64,000 bases of DNA from an uncultured virus (IMG/VR IMGVR_UViG_3300043774_000843) (IMGVR_UViG_3300043774_000843); one strand, 5' to 3'. Positions 1,679-61,219 are shown, counted from the stretch's first letter. The notes: generated by a model not told the origin, from the letters alone. Numbers and translations are program-made.

Positions 1679-1699
1679 TAACAACTAAAAACAAATAAC

Positions 1700-1981
1700 A
1701 TGACTATAAAAGAAGAATTTTACAAATATGGTGAATCATTAGGTATTAAAGTAAATGATTTACAAAGACTTAAAATGTTGTCTAATAATATAAGCTGGGT
1801 GGCGGTGTCCGAGAAATTGCCAACAGTAGAAGATAATGGGCAAAAAGTTTTAATTTATAGAATAATGAACGATAGCCAATAAAGTTTGGCAATTTCTATA
1901 CATGAAACAAATATGGTTAAACATTGTAATCCGAATGAAACTTGGTGGATGGAACTTCCTAAGCCACCTATATTTAACTAA
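1700..1981 (+). pseudogene. DUF551-like protein with an in-frame TAA at 1880-1882
   Basis: WVAVSEKLP lies before the stop; the same frame continues SLAISIHE...TWWMELPKPPIFN to TAA at 1979-1981, the typical DUF551 C-terminus. Confidence 0.7.
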
Positions 1982-1998
1982 CTTAAAAACAAATAACT

Positions 1999-2292
1999 AT
2001 GTCTACTTATATTTACCTTTTATATAGGGAAGAAAAAAGAGAAAACAAAACTTATTATCATTTTTTTAATTCAACTTTTGTTGAGCATAAAATTTTTTTA
2101 AGTCAATTATTTAAAGAATATAGATGGATTGAAAGTACTATGATTAGAAAACCATATATTGTTAAAACAGAAAATTTAGAATGGACAGATATAATATATT
2201 TTAATAGATTAACCATTCATTTTGCAAGGTTGTTAGGGTTATTTATTCATAAAAAATGGTACAAAATACAAAAAGTTAAAATAGTAGATTAG
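1999..2292 (+). CDS. Hypothetical protein
   Basis: ORF preceded by the intergenic repeat. Confidence 0.6.
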   Translation: MSTYIYLLYREEKRENKTYYHFFNSTFVEHKIFLSQLFKEYRWIESTMIRKPYIVKTENLEWTDIIYFNRLTIHFARLLGLFIHKKWYKIQKVKIVD

Positions 2293-2309
2293 TAATAAAA
2301 ACAAATAAC

Positions 2310-2495
2310 ATGGAAACAAAAAAACAAACAGCAGTAGAATTTGCAATACAAAAATTAGAAAAATTTATTGTAAAAGGCAATCAAATAGCAGTTGAAGCAA
2401 TTTTAGAACAAGCCAAAGAAATGGAAAACCAACAATTGAAAGAAAAATACGATAATGGGTATGCTAATGGACAAAAAGATTTAATTATAAACTAA
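2310..2495 (+). CDS. KQTAVE-type small phage protein, copy 1
   Basis: METKKQTAVEF...AKEMENQQ; identical to 2658-2843. Confidence 0.75.
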   Translation: METKKQTAVEFAIQKLEKFIVKGNQIAVEAILEQAKEMENQQLKEKYDNGYANGQKDLIIN

Positions 2496-2512
2496 CAACT
2501 AAAAACAAATAA

Positions 2513-2635
2513 ATGCTTGACGGAATAGATTTTATACCCGATATGCCTAACGGGAAAGGCAAAGGTTGCATGATTGTTTTGTGGATTATTATCACAATAG
2601 TTATTATCGCCATGCACATTTCATCATTTAATTAA
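2513..2635 (+). CDS. 40-aa membrane peptide (paralog of 1559-1678)
   Basis: MLDGIDFIPDMPNGKGKGCMIVLWIIITIVIIAMHISSFN. Confidence 0.65.
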   Translation: MLDGIDFIPDMPNGKGKGCMIVLWIIITIVIIAMHISSFN

Positions 2636-2657
2636 TAACAACTAAAAAACAAATAAC

Positions 2658-2843
2658 ATGGAAACAAAAAAACAAACAGCAGTAGAATTTGCAATACAAA
2701 AATTAGAAAAATTTATTGTAAAAGGCAATCAAATAGCAGTTGAAGCAATTTTAGAACAAGCCAAAGAAATGGAAAACCAACAATTGAAAGAAAAATACGA
2801 TAATGGGTATGCTAATGGACAAAAAGATTTAATTATAAACTAA
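2658..2843 (+). CDS. KQTAVE-type small phage protein, copy 2
   Basis: Identical translation to 2310-2495. Confidence 0.75.
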   Translation: METKKQTAVEFAIQKLEKFIVKGNQIAVEAILEQAKEMENQQLKEKYDNGYANGQKDLIIN

Positions 2844-2861
2844 CAACTAAAAACAAATAAA

Positions 2862-3796
2862 ATGACACATAAAGAAAAAGCAAAACAATTAGTAGATAAA
2901 TTTTATCAAACAACTCCAAACGAAGTATGGTATAATCACCCAATAGGATTAAAAGAAGAATATAAAGCGTGGGAACAGTCTAAACAATGTGCTTTAATAG
3001 CAGTTGATGAGATATTAAATTCAAGTCCAAGTTTACCAGTATTAGGCGATGGAGGTACTTATGGTGAAGATATAGAGTTATCAACTAAATATTGGCAAGA
3101 AGTAAAAATTGAAATAAATAAATTATAAAAACAAATAACATGAGAAAAGTAATGTATCAACAATGGTTGCCAGATGCAACACCAACAGGAAGTAGTCAAT
3201 TAAAATTATCAGAAGAAAGGGTTGGTTTTTTACATCAATGGGGGCTTGAATTAAAAGAAAGTGGAGAAAATATTTGTTCATATTCAGTTGCTATAATTGA
3301 AGATGAAGAAACTAAAGGAGTATTGACTACATATCCGCATCTTGTAACTTTTATAGATTAACCAATACAAACAACTAAAAACACAAAACATGGAACACAA
3401 ACCAAAAATTAAGGATAAAATAAGAGTTAAAACCAAACTTGATGGAGAAAAACTTTGTGAAATTGATTGGCTAAATGATAAAACCATACATTTTAAAAAT
3501 AAAAGCAATTTTGGTATGACTGTAAATTATGATAGAGTTATATATACAAATAACTCTTGGAGAGGTGCTAATTTCACATATACAAGTTTCAACTAAAAAC
3601 AAATAAAATGAAAAATAAAATTTTAGCATTATTGATTGCATTTAGTTTTGTAATAGGAGTAATTGGTTTTTTCTTATGTATTATTTCATACACTTATAAT
3701 TTTATAATTGTTTCTTTGGCTATTTGTATATTATATTATTTATATATACTTTATAAAGTTTGGCTTGAAATATTTAATGAAAAAAATAACAACTAA
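2862..3796 (+). other. Four small hypothetical genes (2862-3128, 3140-3361, 3390-3596, 3608-3796; the last is a membrane protein)
   Basis: ORF track; each is preceded by the intergenic repeat. 2862 has the CALIAVDEIL...YWQEVK pattern seen in small phage proteins. Confidence 0.65.
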
Positions 3797-4759: not shown

Positions 4760-5281
4760 ATGAAAAAATATAAAATTGAATTATCAGAACAGCAAATGAT
4801 GTTAATTGCTAATTGTCTTGAAGATTTGTCAAGGTTTGCATCAGGTCAATCTGAAATGAGATATACAGTTGAAGAAATGTTGCGTGGCTTATCGTTTGAT
4901 GAACAAATGAAAAAACGTGATGAGGTTGAAGAATTATTAAAGAAAGCTAAAAGAGTATTATTGCCTAATTTTCCTGATAATGCAAGTAAAGGTTATAATG
5001 GTAGTGAGTTTATTGGAAATACTTATCAGATTTACAGAAGTATATTATACCAATTAGCCAAAGATAATAACTGGAATAATGTTTATTCTTCACCTGCTTT
5101 GCCAAGTGGTAATTTAGGGACAATTAAAATTGAATTGGTTGATGTAAAACAAAATACAGCCTTGCAATTGCAACAAGCTGGTGTTATAAAATCGGTTTGC
5201 GAACATAAGCATATTTCGGGTGGATATTTTGGAGGTGATAAGTATATTGTAAAATGTAAAGATTGCGATGAAATAACTTAG
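4760..5281 (+). CDS. Hypothetical protein whose C-terminal Cys/His module is cassette 1 of the array
   Basis: The ORF reads through the GTT at 5183; the tail VIKSVCEHKH...CKDCDEIT is bracketed by inverted repeats 5183-5200 and 5281-5297. Confidence 0.7.
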   Translation: MKKYKIELSEQQMMLIANCLEDLSRFASGQSEMRYTVEEMLRGLSFDEQMKKRDEVEELLKKAKRVLLPNFPDNASKGYNGSEFIGNTYQIYRSILYQLAKDNNWNNVYSSPALPSGNLGTIKIELVDVKQNTALQLQQAGVIKSVCEHKHISGGYFGGDKYIVKCKDCDEIT

Positions 5282-5294
5282 CAAACTGACTTAT

Positions 5295-5359
5295 AACGTT
5301 TTGCAGCTAATGGCTGTGAGCTTCTGAAAGTGGGCTGAAAATAGCCATTAGGTGCTGTT
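5295..5359. repeat. attC-like hairpin
   Basis: AAC GTTTT GCAGCTAATGGCTGT ... ATAGCCATTAGGTGC T GTT. Confidence 0.85.
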
Positions 5360-5405
5360 ATGTTTTAGTTTTATTTTATTAATTTTTAAAAAAAGCGAAG
5401 GAATT

Positions 5406-5780
5406 ATGAAACAATTATTTGAAGAAAAAGAACTTATTGGAAAAACAATAGCTCAGGTTTTAATGCCAAAAGAAAGCTATCAAGATATGTGGATAAAATT
5501 TACCGACAATTCTTTTGCTGTATTTGATACGGAGGATAGGACGGAAGGGTTTGGACAAGAAAGGCGTATTCTTGTTATTTCTGATTGGGAAAAAGACAAT
5601 ACAAATGAAGAATTAGTTGAGTTAGGACTAATAACAAAAGCTGAACACAAATACGCATTGGAGGAGGAAGAAAAAAGATACAAAAAAGAAAGAGCTGAAC
5701 GAGACGCTGTTGAGCAAAAAAGAATTGAAGATTACGAGAAGGAACAACTTGCCAAACTTAAAACGAAATACGATGCGTAG
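5406..5780 (+). CDS. Cassette 2 gene, hypothetical with C-terminal coiled coil
   Basis: ATG at 5406; flanked by inverted repeats 5357-5396 and 5781-5816. Confidence 0.75.
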   Translation: MKQLFEEKELIGKTIAQVLMPKESYQDMWIKFTDNSFAVFDTEDRTEGFGQERRILVISDWEKDNTNEELVELGLITKAEHKYALEEEEKRYKKERAERDAVEQKRIEDYEKEQLAKLKTKYDA

Positions 5781-5813
5781 GCTTTTAAAAATTAATAAAA
5801 TAAAATTGAACAC

Positions 5814-5940
5814 AACGGCACTCGGCTAAACTCTCGTTGCCGACTTAAATATGAGAGATAAACTTAATTAAAAGCACAAAATTATGAGTACAAAAAATAT
5901 TTCAAACGAAGAAAAAGACAATGGAGTTTTAGCCGATGTT
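5814..5940. repeat. attC-like hairpin containing the start codon of the next gene in its loop
   Basis: AAC GGCAC TCGGCTAAACTCTCGTTG ... CAATGGAGTTTTAGCCGA T GTT. Confidence 0.85.
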
Positions 5941-6114
5941 ATGCAACGTGATTTATATGCAGAATTACGTTCATCAGGTAGTATGACTTCTGACCAATGC
6001 TGTGAAGTTTTAGATTGGACAGAAAAATTACCAATACAAATTATAGGGTTAAATAATGTTAAGGTTTCAATAGTGCAAGGTGTTATTAGGGTAGAACCTA
6101 ATCATGTTGCATAA
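5884..6114 (+). CDS. Cassette 3 gene, hypothetical
   Basis: Starts inside the hairpin; its TAA stop overlaps the next TAAC; IR GTTATGCAACGTGATT / AATCATGTTGCATAAC. Confidence 0.7.
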   Translation: MSTKNISNEEKDNGVLADVMQRDLYAELRSSGSMTSDQCCEVLDWTEKLPIQIIGLNNVKVSIVQGVIRVEPNHVA

Positions 6115-6159
6115 CGTTTTGCGTATAAAAAATCGTTTTAATGTTTTTTATACGCTGTT
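6113..6159. repeat. attC-like hairpin
   Basis: AAC GTTTT GCGTATAAAAAA ... TTTTTTATACGC T GTT. Confidence 0.85.
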
Positions 6160-6265
6160 ATAACCAGTAGGGATTATTTAGTAGTAACTTTAATCGGAGA
6201 ACTGAACAAAAAATTAAAACAAAAAAAAGCGAATAATTTTTTAATAACTAATAAATAAAAACAAA

Positions 6266-6721
6266 ATGATGACAATTTCTAAATTAGCTTCTGAAATCAG
6301 GGGCGAAAACAACAAAAAAGAATCTGAAAATGATTACAAAAGATTAACTGATACTTTGAAGCAATTCAATGAAGATTTCAAAGAGGTTGTTTGTGATTTA
6401 ATTAAATGTGAGGTTAAATACGAACCTTGTTTTTGGTATAAAAGTGATAACGATGGGCAATATCATATTTTCCCACACGAAACCAAATTAGATTTAAAAA
6501 TGAATGGTGGAAGTGGTGGAACTTGTATTGCTAATTCTATTCTTTTCACATTTAATCACAATGGAGAAACAAGAAAGAAAAGATTATTTTATACGGAAAA
6601 TAAAGGTTGGTATTATATTGCTCGTAGAGGAAATCACATGAATGATGATTATTTAATAAAAGATTACAGAAAAGACTTCATATTATACCTTGATAGTTAT
6701 TTTGAAGGTGAATATAAATAA
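6266..6721 (+). CDS. Cassette 4 gene, hypothetical
   Basis: IR GTTATAACCAGTAGGG / CCCTATTGGTTATAAC, plus inner IR CAAAAAATTAAAACAAAAAAAAGC / GCTTTTTTGTTTTAATTTTTTG. Confidence 0.75.
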   Translation: MMTISKLASEIRGENNKKESENDYKRLTDTLKQFNEDFKEVVCDLIKCEVKYEPCFWYKSDNDGQYHIFPHETKLDLKMNGGSGGTCIANSILFTFNHNGETRKKRLFYTENKGWYYIARRGNHMNDDYLIKDYRKDFILYLDSYFEGEYK

Positions 6722-6800
6722 ATCATTTGTGGGTGGGCTTTTTTGTTTTAATTTTTTGAACAATAAAGTTAATTCGGAGCAGTCCACCCCTATTGGTTAT

Positions 6801-6890
6801 AACGTTTTGCAGCTAACAGAAGTGGCTGCTTGTAAGAACTTCTGAATTAAAAACAAATGCTTGTAGCAGCCATTTTTGTTAGGTGCTGTT
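6801..6890. repeat. attC-like hairpin (same family as 5295)
   Basis: AAC GTTTT GCAGCTAACAGAAGTGGCTGCT ... AGCAGCCATTTTTGTTAGGTGC T GTT. Confidence 0.85.
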
Positions 6891-6915
6891 ATAGGCTGTA
6901 AAAAATTAAAAAGCG

Positions 6916-7116
6916 ATGGAATTACAACTGATTAACTTAGGTAGAAACAACATTAACAAAACTATTGTTGTGAAAAACGAAAAAGCAATGTGGCGTGAAC
7001 TTTCTAAACATTTAATGAGCAAAGGAATTGAACTTTCACCAACTGACGAACCGAATAAATACGATGTGTATGTAGGAATGTTTAGAAATGTTGGACAGGT
7101 GATTATTAAAGAGTAA
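6916..7116 (+). CDS. Cassette 5 gene, hypothetical
   Basis: IR GTTATAGGCTGTAAAAAATTAAAAAGC / GCTTTAATTTTTTATTGCCTATAAC. Confidence 0.75.
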   Translation: MELQLINLGRNNINKTIVVKNEKAMWRELSKHLMSKGIELSPTDEPNKYDVYVGMFRNVGQVIIKE

Positions 7117-7148
7117 CTGTGCGTAGGCTTTAATTTTTTATTGCCTAT

Positions 7149-7229
7149 AACGGTAGGAATTTGCGTCTGTTGATTTTTTACCAACAAGACAATAGACGCT
7201 TAAAAAATCAATAGCGCAAATTTATTGTT
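7149..7229. repeat. attC-like hairpin (variant)
   Basis: AACGGTAGG AATTTGCGTCTGTTGATTTTTTA ... TAAAAAATCAATAGCGCAAATT TATT GTT. Confidence 0.8.
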
Positions 7230-7252
7230 GGGCGCAGTTAAATTAAATCGGA

Positions 7253-7435
7253 ATGAGCAAACAAACAACTTGGAGCGAAAGAGCAAAATGCTATGACGCA
7301 AAACACACAGAAAATGGAACAATATTATATTATGTGTGCCTTATTACAGGGAAGAAAACAGAATTGAAACACCCTGATAAACTTGCTTTATCGGCATATA
7401 TTGGGCATATAGGGGCTTTAGTGCAGTCCTATTAA
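7253..7435 (+). CDS. Cassette 6 gene, hypothetical
   Basis: IR GTTGGGCGCAGTTAA / TTAATTGCGCCCAAC. Confidence 0.7.
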   Translation: MSKQTTWSERAKCYDAKHTENGTILYYVCLITGKKTELKHPDKLALSAYIGHIGALVQSY

Positions 7436-7443
7436 TTGCGCCC

Positions 7444-7492
7444 AACTTACATCTTTGCGCTATAATGTAGGAAATAAATATTTATCAACAAT
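7444..7492. promoter_or_regulatory. Conserved array-terminal (attI-like) site, copy 1
   Basis: 41/49 identical to 19364-19412; begins at the AAC of the last cassette; does not form a hairpin. Confidence 0.65.
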
Positions 7493-7547
7493 ATTATTAT
7501 TGATAGTTTTTATTGCTTATATTTACCACAATTAAAAAACAACAAAA

Positions 7548-7991
7548 ATGGAAAAAACAGAAAAAGACAAATTAGAATTTAAAATCAGAAAGTTTTTTAT
7601 AGACGAAAAAAACTACTTACAAATTAAGAGTAATGATAAATTAATATTCTTAACTCTATATTTAGATGGAGAAAAGAGGGGTAGGAATATCGGAACTGTT
7701 ACTAAATCTACACGAACTATATTTATGAAACGTAAAGTAGATAAACACTTATTTAGGAAAATGAACGCTTGGGGGTTCAATGATTATGTTTTAAGAAATC
7801 AAAGCACATTCGATTTTGTGAGTTTAAGTGATGATAAAGGAAACCATTGGAGTAAAATACCTGTAAGTATGATTTTAGATGGTGCAACTTACCTAAATTT
7901 TAAAAATCAGGGATTTGAATTACAAAGATTTGTTTCTTTGGAAGATTTAGAGAAATACAAAGTAAAAAAAGAAGATAATACGAGATTTTAA
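7548..7991 (+). CDS. Hypothetical protein
   Basis: 147-aa ORF; KHLFRKMNAWGF block. Confidence 0.7.
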   Translation: MEKTEKDKLEFKIRKFFIDEKNYLQIKSNDKLIFLTLYLDGEKRGRNIGTVTKSTRTIFMKRKVDKHLFRKMNAWGFNDYVLRNQSTFDFVSLSDDKGNHWSKIPVSMILDGATYLNFKNQGFELQRFVSLEDLEKYKVKKEDNTRF

Positions 7992-10946: not shown

Positions 10947-10958
10947 ATGAAATGTAAT

Positions 10959-11070
10959 TTAAAATTATAATAAAAATGATAAAAGTAGGGAGTGATTTTA
11001 GCGGAGTTGGTGCTTTTAATCAAGCACTTATGAGATTAGGTATTGATTATGAAGAAGTATTTGCTTGTGA
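10959..11070 (+). repeat. 112-bp direct repeat, copy 1 (copy 2 at 12686-12797)
   Basis: TTAAAATTATAATAAAAATGATAAAAGTAGGGAGTG...TTTGCTTGTGA appears identical at both positions. Confidence 0.9.
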
Positions 11071-12697
11071 TATGGATAAATACGCAAGACAAACTTTTAT
11101 TCATAATTACGGAGAACCTAAATATTTTCCAACAAATGTTTACGATAGAGAAATTCCAAAAGAAAGTTTAGATATTTACATGACATCGCCCCCATGCCAA
11201 GCATTTAGTTTGGCAGGTAAAAGATTAGGCAAAGATGATAAAAGGGGTATTTTGTTTTTTAACTCTCACGAATTTATCAAAGAAAACAAACCACGTTATT
11301 TTATATTTGAGAACGTGAAAGGTTTACTTTCTGATGATGGCGGTAAAACTTTTAGTGAATGGGTTAATATGTTAGGTGGCAAGTCAGTAAATGGAAATCC
11401 TGTTATTTTTCCATACGAAGAAAGCGTTCCTTATCATATATATTGGAAAGTCCTTAACGCTAAAGATTATGGCGTTCCACAAAATAGAGAAAGAGTATTT
11501 ATAATAGGTATTCGTGATGATGAAGATAATAATTTCACTTTTCCTAAAGAAGAATATCTAACTAAAAGATTAAAAGATGTACTTGAAAATGATGTTGATA
11601 AAAAATATTTTTTGAGTGAAAGATTGATGTCTTGGATTGATAGGCATAGAACAAAAAGAGGCAGTTCAAACAAATACCCATTAGATGAAAATGATGTAGG
11701 AGCTTGTATGGTTGCAAGATATGGGAAAAATGGAGCAGAGGACCCGTATATAAAAGTTAATGATTTACATATTGATAATAGTAAAGAAATTAAAGTTGGT
11801 ACATGGAGAACTCACAATGATGGTAGAGGATTTAGAGAAGTATCAGATGAAAATTGTCCTACAATTCCTGCAAGAGCAAGAGAAGATGGAAGTGGGCAAC
11901 CAGTTATAATAGAATACAATATACCTGAAATTGTTAAAGTAAGAAAGCATGAGGTTAGGATAAATGAATTACAACAATTATTAAAAAAGCATAAAAATAT
12001 ATCTATAAAAGAAATTTCAAAAAAATTAAATTGTCAAAAAACAAAAGTTGAACATTGGTTTAGAACAGATACTTTTTTTTCTATACCCGATGCTGAATAT
12101 TGGTTACAATTAAAAGAAATAATTGGTATTGATACTGATGAGTTTGATTCTGAAATTATGGAATTTGAAGAAAGAGAGGGAGTGTTTGATAAATCAAATA
12201 GGGTATATGATACACAAGGAATATCTCCGACTTTAACATCAACAAGCTCTGATGAAAAAATAATTAATAAAGTTATTCAGTTAAATCCAAGTAAAGAAAG
12301 TAATGGTAATCAACCTTATCAACATAATAGAGTTTATGATACAAAAGGTATAATGACTGCATTAGATACTGATTCAGGAAGAAAATCGGTTATGATAGAT
12401 GATTATAAAGAATCTCAAAATGAATGGATTCAAGGAGGACTACAAAAAAATCAACCAAAACAATTTAATGGCATATCCCCTTGTTTAACATCGGCTATGG
12501 GCATGGGGGGAGGACAAACGCCAATACATAATTATAATTATAAAATAAGAAGATTAACCCCAAGAGAATGTTTTAGGTTAATGGATTTTAATGATACATT
12601 CACTTGGATATGTTCAGATTCACAAGCATATAAACAGGCAGGTAATAGTATTGTTGTTGGAGTTTTAGCTAAAATAATTAATAAGTTAAAATTATAA
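10976..12697 (+). CDS. dcm: C5 cytosine DNA methyltransferase with long variable region including an HTH-like insert
   Basis: FSGVG (motif I), SPPCQAFS (IV), ENVKG (VI), QNRERVF (VIII), RRLTPREC and QAGNSI (IX, X). Confidence 0.95.
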   Translation: MIKVGSDFSGVGAFNQALMRLGIDYEEVFACDMDKYARQTFIHNYGEPKYFPTNVYDREIPKESLDIYMTSPPCQAFSLAGKRLGKDDKRGILFFNSHEFIKENKPRYFIFENVKGLLSDDGGKTFSEWVNMLGGKSVNGNPVIFPYEESVPYHIYWKVLNAKDYGVPQNRERVFIIGIRDDEDNNFTFPKEEYLTKRLKDVLENDVDKKYFLSERLMSWIDRHRTKRGSSNKYPLDENDVGACMVARYGKNGAEDPYIKVNDLHIDNSKEIKVGTWRTHNDGRGFREVSDENCPTIPARAREDGSGQPVIIEYNIPEIVKVRKHEVRINELQQLLKKHKNISIKEISKKLNCQKTKVEHWFRTDTFFSIPDAEYWLQLKEIIGIDTDEFDSEIMEFEEREGVFDKSNRVYDTQGISPTLTSTSSDEKIINKVIQLNPSKESNGNQPYQHNRVYDTKGIMTALDTDSGRKSVMIDDYKESQNEWIQGGLQKNQPKQFNGISPCLTSAMGMGGGQTPIHNYNYKIRRLTPRECFRLMDFNDTFTWICSDSQAYKQAGNSIVVGVLAKIINKLKL

Positions 12698-12797
12698 TAA
12701 AAATGATAAAAGTAGGGAGTGATTTTAGCGGAGTTGGTGCTTTTAATCAAGCACTTATGAGATTAGGTATTGATTATGAAGAAGTATTTGCTTGTGA
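12686..12797 (+). repeat. 112-bp direct repeat, copy 2; yields a truncated methyltransferase N-terminus
   Basis: Matches 10959-11070, then diverges and hits a stop within a few codons. Confidence 0.9.
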
Positions 12798-18297: not shown

Positions 18298-19010
18298 ACT
18301 ACTTAATAAAATAAATTACAATCCAAAACTTGTAGAAGAAATTATGAATTTCTTTGAGGGTAAGCATAGAATAAAAACATCTTTTGAAAAGTTTTGTAAT
18401 AAACACTACATAGATGTTAGTCCTTCTATATTATTTGATTTTTTTGATAGCATAAATATAAAAATAGCAATTTTACCTTTAAATAATACTGACTTTTGGA
18501 CTTGTAGAATTTTTACTACCAATGGTATTATAATTCTAAATGATTTCTACAATAGAAAAGATGCAATATTAGGCGGATTAGATAGAGCTTTATACATATA
18601 TAGTAATGGATTTGAAATTTAATAATAAATAAAATGGAACAATTAGAACAACAATTAAATGAAAAAATGCTACAAATAGCAAGAGATTACATTCAGAGAA
18701 GAAATGATAAACCTTTTGAGCAATACGAGGAGGCAAATTATCTTAATGAAAAATACCTTTCAGTAAAAAATGAATTTGAAAAGGAAGGCGATTTTTATAT
18801 AATCTTAAATGAGTGCATAAAAGTAGTTTTAGGAAAAACAAAAAAAAATACAATATGAAAATAAAAAAAAGAAAAATTAAAAATCCATGTTCAGTTTGCG
18901 GTAAAGAGGTTCGTTGGGGTATTGATGGATGCCCTATTGTTGAAAAAGGCAAAGATTTTGAAACTTTATTGGGTGGAGTAAAAGGTATGAAGCATTATGA
19001 GTGCAAATAA
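18284..19010 (+). other. Three small hypothetical genes (18284-18622, 18634-18858, 18855-19010)
   Basis: ORF track. The last has CxxC and is followed by an orphan right-arm sequence ending ATAAC. Confidence 0.55.
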
Positions 19011-19412
19011 AATTTTTAACATAACGGTTTGCGTGTATAAGAAGTGGCGGATTAGAACTCCAAAACTTTCAGCAAACGCAGAACTTAATTAGAATTACAA
19101 AACATTAAATAACCAAGAAACCCGCCATTTTTTATACACGCTGTTAGTGGCTGGGCTTTTCACAAATTGAAACAAAATGAACAAAATATTGATATGTGTA
19201 TTATTGCAAATCGTTCTTTTTATTCCATTTTATTTGATATGGAGAAATGATTGTAAAACGATAGGTAAAGACAACTTGGCTGTTAGCTTACAAGAACGAT
19301 TTTTGTATTGGCTAATATTTTGTCCAATTTGGTTGGTTGGTGTGTTGGATTAGCCTTGCCACTAACTTACTTCTTTACGCTACAATTAAGGAAATAAAAA
19401 GTTATTAACAAT
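19011..19412. mobile_element. Integron-like cassette array 2: one hairpin, one intact cassette, terminal site
   Basis: Hairpin 19023-19145: AAC GGTTT GCGTGTATAAGAAGTGGCGG ... CCGCCATTTTTTATACACGC T GTT. IR GTTAGTGGCTGGGCT / AGCCTTGCCACTAAC. Terminal site at 19364-19412. Confidence 0.8.
19177..19353 (+). CDS. 58-aa two-TM cassette protein
   Basis: Hand translation MNKILICVLLQIVLFIPFYLIWRNDCKTIGKDNLAVSLQERFLYWLIFCPIWLVGVLD; fills the cassette. Confidence 0.7.
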   Translation: MNKILICVLLQIVLFIPFYLIWRNDCKTIGKDNLAVSLQERFLYWLIFCPIWLVGVLD

Positions 19413-24993: not shown

Positions 24994-25743
24994 ATGAAAA
25001 ACGAAAAAGCAAAAGAAACAGTTATTAAATCAATTACTTCTGATTTAATGAATAGTAATGACGAAGGAAATGTAATTATTATCAGAGAAGGTGCAGCACC
25101 TAAACAATTAGATGCAGTAAAACCAAATAAAGTTCATATCAAAGGTGTAATATCTGCTCCAAGTGAATTTTACAACAAAAGAAAACATTTACACAATGCT
25201 GATAAATGCCATATTATTTATGATAAAAACGCAGGTAGCATATCTTTAATTCTTGATGAGCAATTTGAAAACGACAACTACAAAGTAATAGGAACTATAA
25301 CTGATAATCCTGATTTGAATGTTTTTAAAATTAATCAGGAACATTTATTCGGAATTAAAGAGTTAATGGGCATCCTTAAATTTAATAGAGTTCACTTTGT
25401 TGATAAAGAGGCAAATGCTAAAATTGTTTTGTCTTTACAAAATTTCAAAGGCAAGATTGAAAAAGTTTTAACTGATAAATCTGATTTAAGAGGTCAGGAT
25501 GAAAAAACAATCTTAACCAAATTAGAACACGAATTAGAAGAAAGTTTTAAACTTCAAATGCCAATACACAAAGGAGGTAAACCTTATATATTTAATGTGG
25601 ATATTTGTGTTTCTGCAACAAGTTCAGATGTTCAAGTTTGGTTAGAGAGTAAAGAACTTAAAGAACTTCAAGATTCATCAAAATCTAATATGATTGAAGA
25701 AGAATTAAAAAACTTTTCAGAAATAGTTTGTATTGAAATCTAA
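24994..25743 (+). CDS. Hypothetical protein
   Basis: IIIREGAAP...FKLQMPIHKG...IVCIEI. Confidence 0.65.
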   Translation: MKNEKAKETVIKSITSDLMNSNDEGNVIIIREGAAPKQLDAVKPNKVHIKGVISAPSEFYNKRKHLHNADKCHIIYDKNAGSISLILDEQFENDNYKVIGTITDNPDLNVFKINQEHLFGIKELMGILKFNRVHFVDKEANAKIVLSLQNFKGKIEKVLTDKSDLRGQDEKTILTKLEHELEESFKLQMPIHKGGKPYIFNVDICVSATSSDVQVWLESKELKELQDSSKSNMIEEELKNFSEIVCIEI

Positions 25744-27378: not shown

Positions 27379-28497
27379 CTAAATGGAGCGAGGTTCTTCA
27401 ACCAACGCACAACCTAATGGTTCACGTTTGCGATTGAGAGCAATGCCCTTGCTCAAAATATTTTTTGCAGCGTTTGTGTCAGCATTACTGATATGACCGC
27501 AACATTGACACACGAACTCACTTTGACTAATTCTGTTCTTTGCATCTTTTTCTCCGCACTCGTTACAAGTTTGGCTTGTGTATTTAGGATTTACTGCAAA
27601 TACATTTGTTTTGTATTCAAGCATTTCACGAAACATTCCCCAACCACAATCAAGTATGTGTTTTGAAAGATTTTTATTCTTTGACATATTTTTTATACTC
27701 AAATCCTCTAAATAAACCATGTGGTATTTTTTAGCCAACTTGGTAGATTCTTTATGCAAAAAATCTTTCCTTACATTTGATATTGTATGATGCAACAGAC
27801 TTAGTTTCTTTACCTGCTTTTTCCAACGATTACTTCCTTTCTTTTTTCTTGACAAACTTCTATTTTCTATGCGAAGTTTTCTTTCGTGTTTAGAAAAATG
27901 TTTTGGGTTGTCAATGAAGTTATCGTTGCTGTCTGCGACAAAATGAGTTACTCCCATATCAATTCCTATAACTTGGCTCTCGTTAGGATTTGAAATATTT
28001 TTACTCACTTCATCACAGACAATGCAGATAAAAAAACCTGTGGGTTCTATTACTATTTGTGCTGTCTTTATTTTTCCTATTATTGGAGATTTACCCTTGA
28101 AAAATTTTAATTCACCAATCTTAGGAAGTTTTATTTTATTATTTTGCGTTAATTCTGCTGATTTAAAAAGTATTGATTTATAATTTTTCTTTGATTTGAA
28201 TTTTGGAAAACCACCACCTGATTTACAGGTTCTAAAAAAGTTTTTGTATGATTTATCTAGCCTTTCTAAAGAATTTTGTAGGCTTTGACTTGGCACATCT
28301 GCAACCCAATCAATATCTTTTATTTCGGTTAGCTGTTTCATTAAATCGTATGCAGAAACATTCAGTTGCTTGTTTTTATATGCTGAAATTTTAATTTCTA
28401 ATCCCATATTATAAACCAAACGACAAACACCAATCCAAGACGAAATTCTTTCCTCTTGAACCTTAGTTAGTTTTAATTTTCTTTTATAGGTTAGCAT
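27379..28497 (-). CDS. tnpB: TnpB RNA-guided endonuclease
   Basis: GIDMG, YLEDL, NADTNAA RuvC triad intact; TSQTCNECG...CQCCG zinc finger. Confidence 0.95.
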   Translation of the reverse strand: MLTYKRKLKLTKVQEERISSWIGVCRLVYNMGLEIKISAYKNKQLNVSAYDLMKQLTEIKDIDWVADVPSQSLQNSLERLDKSYKNFFRTCKSGGGFPKFKSKKNYKSILFKSAELTQNNKIKLPKIGELKFFKGKSPIIGKIKTAQIVIEPTGFFICIVCDEVSKNISNPNESQVIGIDMGVTHFVADSNDNFIDNPKHFSKHERKLRIENRSLSRKKKGSNRWKKQVKKLSLLHHTISNVRKDFLHKESTKLAKKYHMVYLEDLSIKNMSKNKNLSKHILDCGWGMFREMLEYKTNVFAVNPKYTSQTCNECGEKDAKNRISQSEFVCQCCGHISNADTNAAKNILSKGIALNRKREPLGCALVEEPRSI

Positions 28498-28554
28498 AAT
28501 TATTTTCAAAATTAATAAAAAAGGTATATATTTGCGTCGTATATAACATATTTT

Positions 28555-28953
28555 ATGAACAATAGGTGGAAATCTTCAAAACACGCAGTATATAATTGCT
28601 CTTATCATTTAATTTGGTGTCCTAAATATCGTAGGAAAGTTCTTACCGATGGTATTGATGTTAGATTAAAAGAATTGTTGTTACAGAAAGCATCAGAACA
28701 TGGTTGGGTTATTGAAAATATGGAAGTTATGCCTGACCACGTTCATATATTTATTAAAGCTACAACAAACGATTCTCCTGTTTATATTGTTAGTCAATTA
28801 AAAGGTTTTACTTCATTTACTTTAAGAAACGAGTTCCCTAAACTAAAATCAAGATTACCTACATTGTGGACACGAAGTTATTATTGCGAAACTATTGGAC
28901 ATATTTCAGAAGCTACCATAAAAAAATATATTGATGAACAAAAAAACAAATAA
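28555..28953 (+). CDS. tnpA: IS200 Y1 HUH transposase
   Basis: HLIWCPKYRRKVL, DHVHIF (HUH), LWTRSYY, YIDEQ. Confidence 0.95.
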   Translation: MNNRWKSSKHAVYNCSYHLIWCPKYRRKVLTDGIDVRLKELLLQKASEHGWVIENMEVMPDHVHIFIKATTNDSPVYIVSQLKGFTSFTLRNEFPKLKSRLPTLWTRSYYCETIGHISEATIKKYIDEQKNK

Positions 28954-59047: not shown

Positions 59048-61219
59048 TTAAATTTTATAAAAATTTCTTAAATATGCTTTTTCTAAAACTAAACTACCTA
59101 CAACTTGTTTTGGATAGTTTGGTTCATGTCCTAATATTTTTGTTAATTTACAAATACAGATTTCGCCATTCTGTAAATTTTCACGAACTAACATTTCAGC
59201 AGATTTAGAAAATTCTTTTGATGCTGATTTTAAATCATCTTGGTATTCGATTCCACCGCCTGTTTCTTTGTAGTATTCTTTAGGTTTAACTTCATAGTGT
59301 AATTTTAAATTTGGTTTATTTAATTTTACAGACAATATTTCCCTTTCTTTAATAGCTTCATAAGGTGTATTATGTATTGAAATAATTTTATTTGTTTTAT
59401 TATCTATAACGTATGATATTGATGGCTTATATAACTGCCAACTTTCATCGTACTTTGCGTTGGGATTTCCAATAAACGTATCGCCTACTTTATAATTCCC
59501 AACCCCACCGCCATTGGCGTATCTTTTAGGAATTGTATCAAAATAATCTTGCATATAAGTTGCCATTCCATCTATGTAATATTCAAAACTATTATATCCA
59601 TTTTTTTCTAATTTTGATATTTTAGAATAACCTCTTTTTATGCTTTTTGCAAATTCTTCTGCTTCTTTTAAATTATCTGTCCAAAAAGATTTTGATTTAG
59701 GGTTGTTTTCTAATTCATTTACATAACCTACCTGATATTTACTTATACCATGACCAACCCCACCGCCATTGGCGTATTCCATAACTTCTGGAAATAAATC
59801 TAATCCTTTTTTTGTAAATTTCCATTTTGAAGTGTCAATATCTTCAATAGTATTCGCTTTTATTGTATTCCATCTATTCCCTAATACATCAACAATATTA
59901 ATGTAAAATTTTCCCGTTTTTGGTTCAAAGTAGTAACTATTATCTTTATATTCAGCTATTAAAATTTTACTTTCAACCCCACCGCCATTTTTAAATCTCT
60001 TTAATTTCCAATTATAAAATTCATCTAATATGTATTTTTCAGCATTTTCCCAATCTTCGGGTACATTTTGTCCCCATTCAATTTCGTCATTCATCCTACT
60101 TGATGATGGTGCTTCAATAATATAACCATCATAATCAAGAATTGATGCGCCTTCGCTATCTTCTGTTTCAAAAGAGAAATCATAACGACCAAGCCTTCTA
60201 TCTGTATTGTCAGAAAAATCAATATTTTTAATTATTTCCTTGTTTGACAAAACCATTCCTCCCATTTCATATCCATTATCGGCAAGGCTATAATAATTAT
60301 CTGAATTAGGAACTAATATCATACTATCTAAAACTGTTACATTAAACATTTTTAATGCAGTTTTAACTTGTTGATACAATTTAATATCTGCTTCGCTTGG
60401 TCTATTATTTCCGCTTGGGTGATTGTGTGCTAAAATTACACCTTTAGATAATGTTTTTAAAGCTAAAGCGCCAATCATTTCAACATCAACTAAAGTTGCG
60501 TTAATTGCACCTTTTGTATGTTCATAATACCCTATTGGCTCATTTGCATTGTTTAAAAACAACACATTCATTTCTTCACGAACATTTATACTTTCTTTAT
60601 TCCAAAGTTGTTTGAAAATTTCGTAAGCATCTTTTGAACTACCAATTTTTGTTTTTTCAACACTAAAATCTTGACGAACAAGTGCAATATCAATAAGTGC
60701 AATATCAATTTCGCTAATCTTTTGATTATTAGGCTCATTTATAACAATAGGAGTTTCTGAACTTAAATCAGGATATTTCATTATTCCGCCAGTAGCAAAT
60801 TTGTTTTTACTTGCTCTATTGCCAACTTTATAATCTAAATGGTGATATAAATTATCAATATCATTAGCAGATATAGCTAATTTATTTTCCTGCCATGACA
60901 TTAACTTAGAACCGCCTTTAATCATTTCAATTAGCTTATTAGCATATTTTGAAATTGATAAAAGTTGCTTTTTAAATATCATTCCTCCCTCATCAAATTT
61001 TTCCCAGCCCTCTAATGAGTGTGCAACATCAGAAACATTTTGTTCAATACGAGTAAGTTTCATCTTTACCCATTCTTCTAAATTACTTTCTTCGGTTACG
61101 ATAATATCTAATTTAACAGCATACTCATAAATCATATCAAGATTTATTAATGCCATTTTTTTATCAAAATCAAATACATCAAAAACTCCACCTAAATCGT
61201 ATTTATCCCAATGTTTCAT
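59048..61219 (-). CDS. Modular polyvalent protein with RadC/JAB domain and eight GG-motif linkers
   Basis: REE..VLFLN..N, ILAHNHPSGN..PSEAD, VLDSMIL; linkers YDLGG, FDEGG, FATGG, YEMGG, FKNGG, YANGG x2, KETGG. Confidence 0.85.
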   Translation of the reverse strand: MKHWDKYDLGGVFDVFDFDKKMALINLDMIYEYAVKLDIIVTEESNLEEWVKMKLTRIEQNVSDVAHSLEGWEKFDEGGMIFKKQLLSISKYANKLIEMIKGGSKLMSWQENKLAISANDIDNLYHHLDYKVGNRASKNKFATGGIMKYPDLSSETPIVINEPNNQKISEIDIALIDIALVRQDFSVEKTKIGSSKDAYEIFKQLWNKESINVREEMNVLFLNNANEPIGYYEHTKGAINATLVDVEMIGALALKTLSKGVILAHNHPSGNNRPSEADIKLYQQVKTALKMFNVTVLDSMILVPNSDNYYSLADNGYEMGGMVLSNKEIIKNIDFSDNTDRRLGRYDFSFETEDSEGASILDYDGYIIEAPSSSRMNDEIEWGQNVPEDWENAEKYILDEFYNWKLKRFKNGGGVESKILIAEYKDNSYYFEPKTGKFYINIVDVLGNRWNTIKANTIEDIDTSKWKFTKKGLDLFPEVMEYANGGGVGHGISKYQVGYVNELENNPKSKSFWTDNLKEAEEFAKSIKRGYSKISKLEKNGYNSFEYYIDGMATYMQDYFDTIPKRYANGGGVGNYKVGDTFIGNPNAKYDESWQLYKPSISYVIDNKTNKIISIHNTPYEAIKEREILSVKLNKPNLKLHYEVKPKEYYKETGGGIEYQDDLKSASKEFSKSAEMLVRENLQNGEICICKLTKILGHEPNYPKQVVGSLVLEKAYLRNFYKI

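Follow-up and report, generated by a model that had tools for sequence, protein, structure and literature searches.

The question raised by this locus is what a series of hairpins framed by AAC and GTT does between the small genes of a virus. The window, meaning the whole stretch of DNA analysed, covers the leading 64 kb of a linear virus record of 73,549 bases with a CheckV completeness of 66%. Its sequence occurs in lake metagenomes, and no RNA dataset with it was found among the listed runs. The gene content of the window includes an endolysin and tail-fibre-like proteins as well as many small genes, and the phage host is likely a member of the Bacteroidota, because sites of the same sequence type were found mostly there. 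The results suggest that the hairpins are probably the joints of one-gene cassettes exchanged at AAC. The substrate is likely one folded strand, here the + strand, and the enzyme is likely an integron-like tyrosine recombinase, probably of the host, that lacks the insertion of IntI.

Other features were recorded in the same window. An IS605-type element occupies 27379-28953, with TnpB on the - strand and TnpA (a Y1 transposase, 28555-28953) on the + strand. A 116-nt direct repeat (10955-11070 and 12682-12797) lies on either side of a DNA methyltransferase gene (10976-12697), and a 217-nt exact duplication with a spacing of 348 nt is found among small genes at 2297-2861; an A-rich upstream motif recurs before many early genes. 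A 723-amino-acid protein with a RadC-like JAB domain is encoded at 59048-61219.

The preliminary description had listed five hairpins with their stems, at 5295, 5814, 6113, 6801, and 19023, and all five were found on the + strand, with 0.08 expected by chance. A search of both strands of the 73,549-base genome with its consensus gave 7 matches, 5 of them with at least 4 of 5 Watson-Crick stem pairs, while 100 dinucleotide shuffles gave a mean of 3.34 raw matches and 0.08 (maximum 1) with at least 4 of 5 pairs. The stems were present as listed, except that GCAGC/GGTGC contains a G·G mismatch. The set itself was real and incomplete, since a sixth hairpin with a 2-nt bulge (7149-7229) had been missed. 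A covariance model built from 30 related sites recovered the five hairpins and the sixth with 20.8-70 bits, and the opposite strands scored 14 bits or less. The weakest site, 5814-5940, folded no better than its shuffles (z -0.74). The coordinates of the hairpins, the cassette genes, and the array ends are shown in Table 1.

Table 1. Hairpins, cassette genes, and attI-like ends in the window
Feature	Position	Strand	Remarks
Bulged cassette hairpin, AAC to GTT	5295..5359	+	4-nt bulge; model R1 50.5 bits
Bulged cassette hairpin	5814..5940	+	4-nt bulge, extra T in right arm; 20.8 bits
Bulged cassette hairpin, shortest (47 nt)	6113..6159	+	4-nt bulge; 45.5 bits
Bulged cassette hairpin	6801..6890	+	4-nt bulge; 70 bits
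Sixth hairpin, 2-nt bulge class	7149..7229	+	32.8 bits; register as in L310 and L318 arrays
Bulged cassette hairpin, array 2	19023..19145	+	4-nt bulge; 53.8 bits
Probable decayed site inside ORF 4760-5281	5143..5190	+	weak; GTTATAA equals the box before 5295; loose contig end at 5186
Cassette gene, 124 aa, function unknown	5406..5780	+	phrog_33653
Cassette gene, 76 aa	5884..6114	+	starts inside upstream hairpin; stop is the TAA of the next box
Cassette gene, 151 aa	6266..6721	+	no family match
Cassette gene, 66 aa	6916..7116	+	no family match
Cassette gene, 60 aa	7253..7435	+	no family match
Cassette gene of array 2, 58 aa, hydrophobic	19177..19353	+	no family match
attI-like end, array 1	7444..7470	-	non-palindromic; two-base L mark, 7 nt, GTT on - strand
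attI-like end, array 2	19364..19390	-	in lake contigs, joined to several different cassette ends

The fold of these sites differs between the two strands. On the + strand, the G that follows AAC forms a pair with the lone T in front of GTT, which leaves 4 nt extruded. The 5-versus-1 internal loop that had been proposed therefore holds only for the - strand, where the G·T becomes an A·C mismatch, and on the + strand it is replaced by a G·T wobble and a 4-nt one-sided bulge. In the predicted single-stranded DNA folds of all five sites, the AAC/GTT box was closed on the + strand, and in-register closure on the - strand was found in none.

Each unit consists of a hairpin, a gene, and a closing box, with exchange taking place at the AAC that forms the 5' side of the hairpin. 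In the window, the bases behind GTT matched the box before the next AAC in 7/8, 10/10, 15/16, 9/9, 10/10, and 9/9 positions, so that complementary cassette ends, a trait of attC, were found in all six units. In 237 neighbouring site pairs, the 5 bases behind GTT matched the box of the next site at 4.2 of 5 positions and their own box at 2.0, with perfect matches in 148 pairs versus 9. Both arrays end in a non-palindromic site with the spacing of the sites found beside the integrases of relatives, and these attI-like ends have a TAGCG motif in common with four bacterial ones. The cassette genes face the attI-like end, whereas integron genes are expected to point away from attI. Pfam gave no match for any of 8 window proteins from around the arrays. 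ORF 5884-6114 has its start codon in the loop of hairpin 5814-5940, and its translation runs through the right arm; a gene start inside the hairpin was seen in about a third of gene-sense phage cassettes (63/193 and 59/183).

Natural variants showed the gain and loss of such units. The sister phage G001 is 99.9% identical to the window up to 7446, then carries five more hairpin units, and then a diverged allele (86%). At the AAC of 19023, about 1.05 kb (three more units) is inserted in G001 and the left flank continues into a different hairpin; each hairpin therefore travels with the gene behind it. Lake contigs (8 of the 24 listed runs) depart from the window at 6112, 6800-6803, 7446, 19021-19023, and 19362-19366; one carries attI-like sequence behind 6803 where the window has a hairpin, and one, like G001, runs into a further hairpin right behind 7446. 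No credible joint of an excised cassette circle was found in the contigs of 8 lake runs.

For Polaribacter phage Freya, 7 of 10 isolates were compared, with Freya_10 as the reference; isolates 3, 4, and 7, outside this set, have the lengths of 2 and 6. All six comparisons showed cassette-block differences ending within AAC, five with junction overlaps of 3, 3, 3, 4, and 3 nt and the sixth as a 469-nt insert between two AACs; three of the junctions are at record ends and three are internal. Overlaps of 3-4 nt are explained neither by homologous recombination nor by repeat collapse. Crossover within AAC, another trait of attC, was placed there by the Freya comparisons and G001, at a resolution that leaves the exact bond unassigned. 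The sizes of the Freya isolates (44.0-48.9 kb; L237, L238, L327-L336) correspond to cassette gain and loss upstream of the integrase. In the main text of the isolation paper (PMC8776804), as far as it was available, the integrase is taken as a sign of a temperate phage, and the words "integron" and "cassette" do not occur.

Three further observations concern gene content in these phages. A gene of 363-373 nt is present in G001 and in lake contigs and absent from the window at 18624-18632, with a junction that has no hairpin, which is a second mode of gene gain or loss. In G001 (L234), a third attI-like site follows a relative of the 6113 cassette at 25094 and is absent at the matching place in this genome. 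In Flavobacterium phage 11b (L229), five hairpins of this kind lie between small genes at 1697-3059 as an array without annotation.

The enzyme was sought in the phage and at related loci. No tyrosine recombinase was found in this phage by motif scan, by PHROGs (88 window ORFs), or by PF00589 in the linear record of 66% completeness, and no integrase gene lies beside either attI-like site of this incomplete record. A host enzyme likely acts in trans, because the phage record contains no recombinase. In related phages, the DNA upstream of the integrase contains sites in 45 of the 52 integrase-seeded loci in which it spans at least 1.5 kb, with 182 sites upstream on the integrase strand versus 5 elsewhere (best 80 of 581 matches). 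The bacterial loci were chosen by flank length (39 of 51 family matches and one other; 20 of 40 IntI matches). Bulged sites were found at 27 of 40 bacterial loci of insertion-less integrases versus 1 of 20 canonical IntI loci, and matches of the classical attC type numbered 11 in 7/40 family loci versus 20 in 11/20 canonical IntI loci. No bulged site was found at 13 of the 40 bacterial and 7 of the 52 phage integrase loci (phage: best 80 of 581 matches). At E<=0.01, the covariance model gave 38 matches in family loci versus 0 in 26 IntI loci, where 7 weak matches of up to 23.7 bits were seen. The earlier suggestion of a distinct recombinase thus agrees with the loci, as the sites travel with the insertion-less integrase and not with IntI. 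Among 121 sampled genomes of the phylum, the insertion-less family was present in 40, canonical IntI in 38, and both in 15.

The insertion-less integrases matched PF00589, and the tyrosine recombinase residues (R, K, HxxRH, GH, and Y) were invariant, in agreement with a fold search. The stretch from KDR to HxLRH measured 53-61 residues in all 112 parsed proteins versus 100 residues in 17 of 19 IntI, and alignment to IntI1 (29% identity) left gaps of 31 and 10 residues. None of 14 proteins reached the TIGR02249 cut-off of 265 bits; they scored 145.7-209.7 bits, with the match split in two pieces. The FastTree phylogeny placed 123 insertion-less integrases apart from IntI (support 0.77), while two quick IQ-TREE trees nested IntI among them (support 96 and 91), and monophyly of the insertion-less group was not rejected by the AU test (p 0.46). 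The trees had only three Xer outgroups; the first IQ-TREE run used 50 of 151 rows, and the second omitted 11 of those (one long IS91-linked sequence and near-redundant ones). The L147 integrase was excluded from one alignment, as its next ORF resembles an IS91-type transposase. This integrase and the IS91-type transposase, as read from the sequence, lie directly at a cassette junction (L147 2341-3464), and at L436 3407-5405 an integrase and an annotated IS91-type transposase lie inside a canonical IntI array.

A pattern derived from two window sites gave 122 loci in viruses and 109 in genomes, with Bacteroidota predominating among the genome loci. When 228 of those loci were scanned with the arm lengths left free, 215 sites were obtained; the arms differed by 4 in 136 of them and by 3 in 53, and shuffles gave 0 sites. 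The geometry was recounted in loci found by their integrase, because the pattern-found loci had been seeded with the 5/1 geometry. In phage loci found in this way (228 sites), the bulge measured 2, 3, and 4 nt in 26, 104, and 89 sites, with 9 others, and in bacterial loci (67 sites) it measured 2, 3, 4, and 5 nt in 10, 14, 29, and 13 sites, with 1 other. The proposal that the 5/1 geometry is fixed was therefore not borne out, as it was seen in only 89 of the 228 phage and 29 of the 67 bacterial sites, the rest having mostly 2-, 3-, or 5-nt bulges. Bulge size may follow integrase lineage, as suggested by 5-nt bulges in L375 and L405 and 2-nt bulges in L310, L313, and L318. Two features are constant across the family, namely a short arm of 6 nt, counted from the L dinucleotide to GTT, and the G·T wobble, which adjoins the box in two site sets at 324 of 332 and 63 of 67 positions examined, one per site (about 97%). 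A T precedes AAC in 95% and an A follows GTT in 97% of the 332 sites.

The covariation of the stems that had been reported was upheld in the larger collection, with mutual information of 0.34-1.56 bits versus 0.05 or less when shuffled (first 13 pairs). Paired cells made up 92.1% versus 69.6% in shuffles. Two-sided stem changes numbered 137 versus 40.8 in shuffles and at most 35 in slid controls. Covariation figures of this kind are inflated by kinship, and the sites had been selected for pairing. The idea that the hairpins have only geometry and no sequence in common did not hold, since both half-sites have a common TTGCNNNTA-like consensus with a near-invariant outer T (94% and 96% in the two halves, mostly opposite G). 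Dyads of this kind are bound by tyrosine recombinases. The spacer defined by the dyad is 8 or 7 nt on one side versus 4 nt on the other; in three class 1 attC sites it is 6 versus 5, so that the bulged family appears as the extreme form.

The features that define attC and IntI were taken from the available parts of PMC2727003, PMC5027507, PMC9668308, and PMC7790495. As in integron attC and IntI (PMC2727003 and PMC5027507, in part), there are AAC/GTT core boxes, exchange within AAC, and one-gene cassettes with complementary ends, as well as a terminal loop of free length, a non-palindromic attI-like site proximal to the integrase, one strand that folds better, and a tyrosine recombinase. The attC boxes RYYYAAC/GTTRRRY pair in the fold here too, with AAC/GTT serving as the anchor of the scan and a loose fit to RYYY/RRRY. 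Unlike attC as described in the same excerpts, with its unpaired spacer of about 5/6 nt, the bulged family has arms that differ by 3-4 nt and a spacer that is largely paired, with a wobble and a one-sided bulge of 2-5 nt, and that covaries. The L-box extrahelical base of attC and the insertion of IntI, as given in those parts, are both missing. The L-box columns pair without a gap, and a scan for the extrahelical base gave only 11 matches in 7 of 40 integrase loci. An unpenalised fit of an extrahelical base (best of seven positions) classed 105 and 35 of 461 sites as better with a bulge, which is inflated, and a penalised fit was used instead; by this fit, which is partly circular as the collection came from an ungapped scan, 436 of 461 sites fit without a single extra base. 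The difference from classical attC that had been noted from the window was thus supported, and the hairpins are an integron-like variant and not classical attC, the extrahelical base, the unpaired spacer, and I2 all being missing.

It would still be conceivable, at a low probability, that these are ordinary attC sites of a taxon-specific flavour that are recombined by a canonical IntI of the host, the short integrase being incidental. The AAC/GTT core, the complementary cassette ends, and the crossover triplet are as in attC, canonical IntI is present in 38 of the 121 genomes sampled from the phylum, and one member was called attC by HattCI. Against this, canonical IntI loci hold classical attC (20 in 11/20) and one bulge-type match, the bulged sites are without the L-box extrahelical base, and at 45 of 52 phage loci (best 80 of 581 matches) the short integrase lies directly beside the array. 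The member called attC, P12002L_attC1, was also not recombined by IntI1 according to the available text of PMC9892861, being the only one of six phage sites tried for which this was the outcome, and it was filed there as attC by HattCI alone and not by HattCI and INFERNAL. It shows the bulged geometry (9-nt and 6-nt arms, G·T, and the loop type of site 6113) within such an array and scores 22 bits on the family model, a score that is no more than that of the weak matches in IntI loci.

P12002L_attC2 (L230, NC_028924, 29149-29262) is not a family hairpin; it is the end of the last cassette, with a box that matches the bases behind attC1, and from its sequence it looks like the attI-like site of the array. 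IntI1 did recombine this site in the same partly available paper (PMC9892861), and because of this the bulged-hairpin and IntI systems may not be fully separate. The accessible sections on phage CALINs (Qi et al. 2023, PMC9892861) contain no account of this geometry, of the hairpin family, or of its integrase. As far as the available part of PMC9024848 goes, IntegronFinder found almost no complete integrons in Bacteroidetes, and PMC8618304 merely lists the phylum. In a literature search with most subscription journals outside its reach, neither the bulged geometry nor the system was found described.

The layout of the arrays differs between phages and bacteria. In phages, the array, the attI-like site, and the integrase follow one another on one strand, and in bacteria the order is mostly integrase, site, and array, with 9 of 40 loci having sites upstream as in phages. 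Cassette genes in phages are directed to the attI-like end (193:9 and 183:3), and those in bacteria away from it (109:26 and 31:3). Unlike in integrons as outlined in the partial sources, the integrase points into the array at most bacterial insertion-less loci, and the phage cassette genes face the attI-like site, an orientation that the available portion of PMC5027507 gives as never observed in mobile or chromosomal integrons. The AAC-G strand is the gene strand in phages and antisense in bacteria, and other wobbles favour this strand in both (213:57 in phages and 151:46 in bacteria). The same strand bias despite the opposite gene sense speaks for a constraint at the DNA level and not at the RNA level. 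Predicted box closure was found on the AAC-G strand in 303 of 369 sites versus 4 of 369 on the other, a count that is a consequence of the G and the T being required in the scan. It is inferred that the phage and host cassette pools are largely separate.

This strand bias bears on the proposal that the hairpins act either in RNA, as terminators or stabilising stems, or as substrates for the TnpA of the IS605 element (28555-28953), with gene gain and loss by homologous recombination between hairpins, which is considered very improbable. The better-folding strand is the mRNA strand in phages, the hairpins are repeated, and a Y1 transposase is encoded in the window. In bacteria, however, that strand is the antisense one (109:26 and 31:3) and shows the wobble bias all the same. 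A terminator or promoter reading was rejected, as 0 terminator-like sites were found in 5000-7700 and promoter-like sites were at chance level (11 versus 13.4). An Rfam RNA element, for which Flavo-1 had been considered, was likewise rejected: in 1-35000 no Rfam match fell on the hairpins, and the two snoRNA matches, with E values of 1.8 and 3.4, lie away from them in that stretch. Homologous recombination would need longer overlaps than the 3-4 nt seen at the junctions, and TnpA is paired with TnpB as in an ordinary IS605.

For the preferred reading of the hairpins as cassette joints folded on one strand, the following sequence of events is proposed. Each TTGCNNNTA-like half-site would bind one recombinase monomer. 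The G·T wobble would close the AAC/GTT box on one strand, and the other would be left with an A·C mismatch and an open loop, so that one strand would be selected; strand choice by asymmetry, as had been put forward, is a prediction from modelled folding. By analogy with IntI, cleavage would take place between AA and C. The unequal spacer (8 or 7 nt versus 4) would block the second strand exchange and so replace the docking of extrahelical bases by I2, and replication would resolve the junction. On this phage, the integrase of the host would work in trans.

The same cassettes and enzyme could also be used in another manner, which is judged unlikely though less so than the alternatives above: the bulge and wobble would neither choose the strand nor block the second exchange, the enzyme would act in a Xer-like way on an extruded cruciform or by double exchange, and the asymmetry would only tune the spacing. 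Xer enzymes act on double-stranded dif sites rather than cassette hairpins. The predicted fold gave XerA as the best match (Z 24.1, rmsd 12.8, 262 aligned), with a lower score for IntI 2a3v (Z 22.7, rmsd 5.7, 271 aligned), and NF040815 was the best NCBIfam match for all 14 proteins, 3 of them above its cut-off. In this best profile match, the proteins resemble XerA / NF040815 and the "integron-like" subgroup of PMC8138268, in which, according to the part available, the insertion is not fully conserved; that part gives no substrate for insertion-less members. The bulge size ranges from 2 to 5 nt, and the enzyme is without I2, which docks the extrahelical bases and impedes the second exchange (PMC7790495, in part). 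On the other hand, the G·T is kept in 97% of sites, the additional wobbles lean towards one strand, every mapped exchange is at the AAC of one side only, and the arrays keep one polarity relative to the attI-like site.

A tentative evolutionary extension is possible, namely that the insertion-less integrases are a living pre-I2 stage of the integron, in which wobble and bulge preceded I2 and the extrahelical bases, with IntI arising inside the group and the phages having reversed polarity and their own cassette pool. In the available part of PMC7790495, the I2 helix is held to give integrases single-strand recombination, and missing intermediates are cited as an obstacle. An integrase that is common, has no I2, and is located at hairpin cassette arrays would put this idea to a direct test, and the cultured Freya phages show the products. 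A large cassette pool may escape current tools, because IntegronFinder reports few integrons in Bacteroidetes and the insertion-less family is about as frequent as IntI (40 versus 38 of 121). The cassette system accounts in part for the way tiny genes form a mosaic in the phages of Bacteroidota, and it may offer a second structure-specific recombinase for engineering. On this likely reading, a simpler cousin of the integron enzyme would provide Bacteroidota and their phages with a second system for swapping genes, one that has been overlooked.
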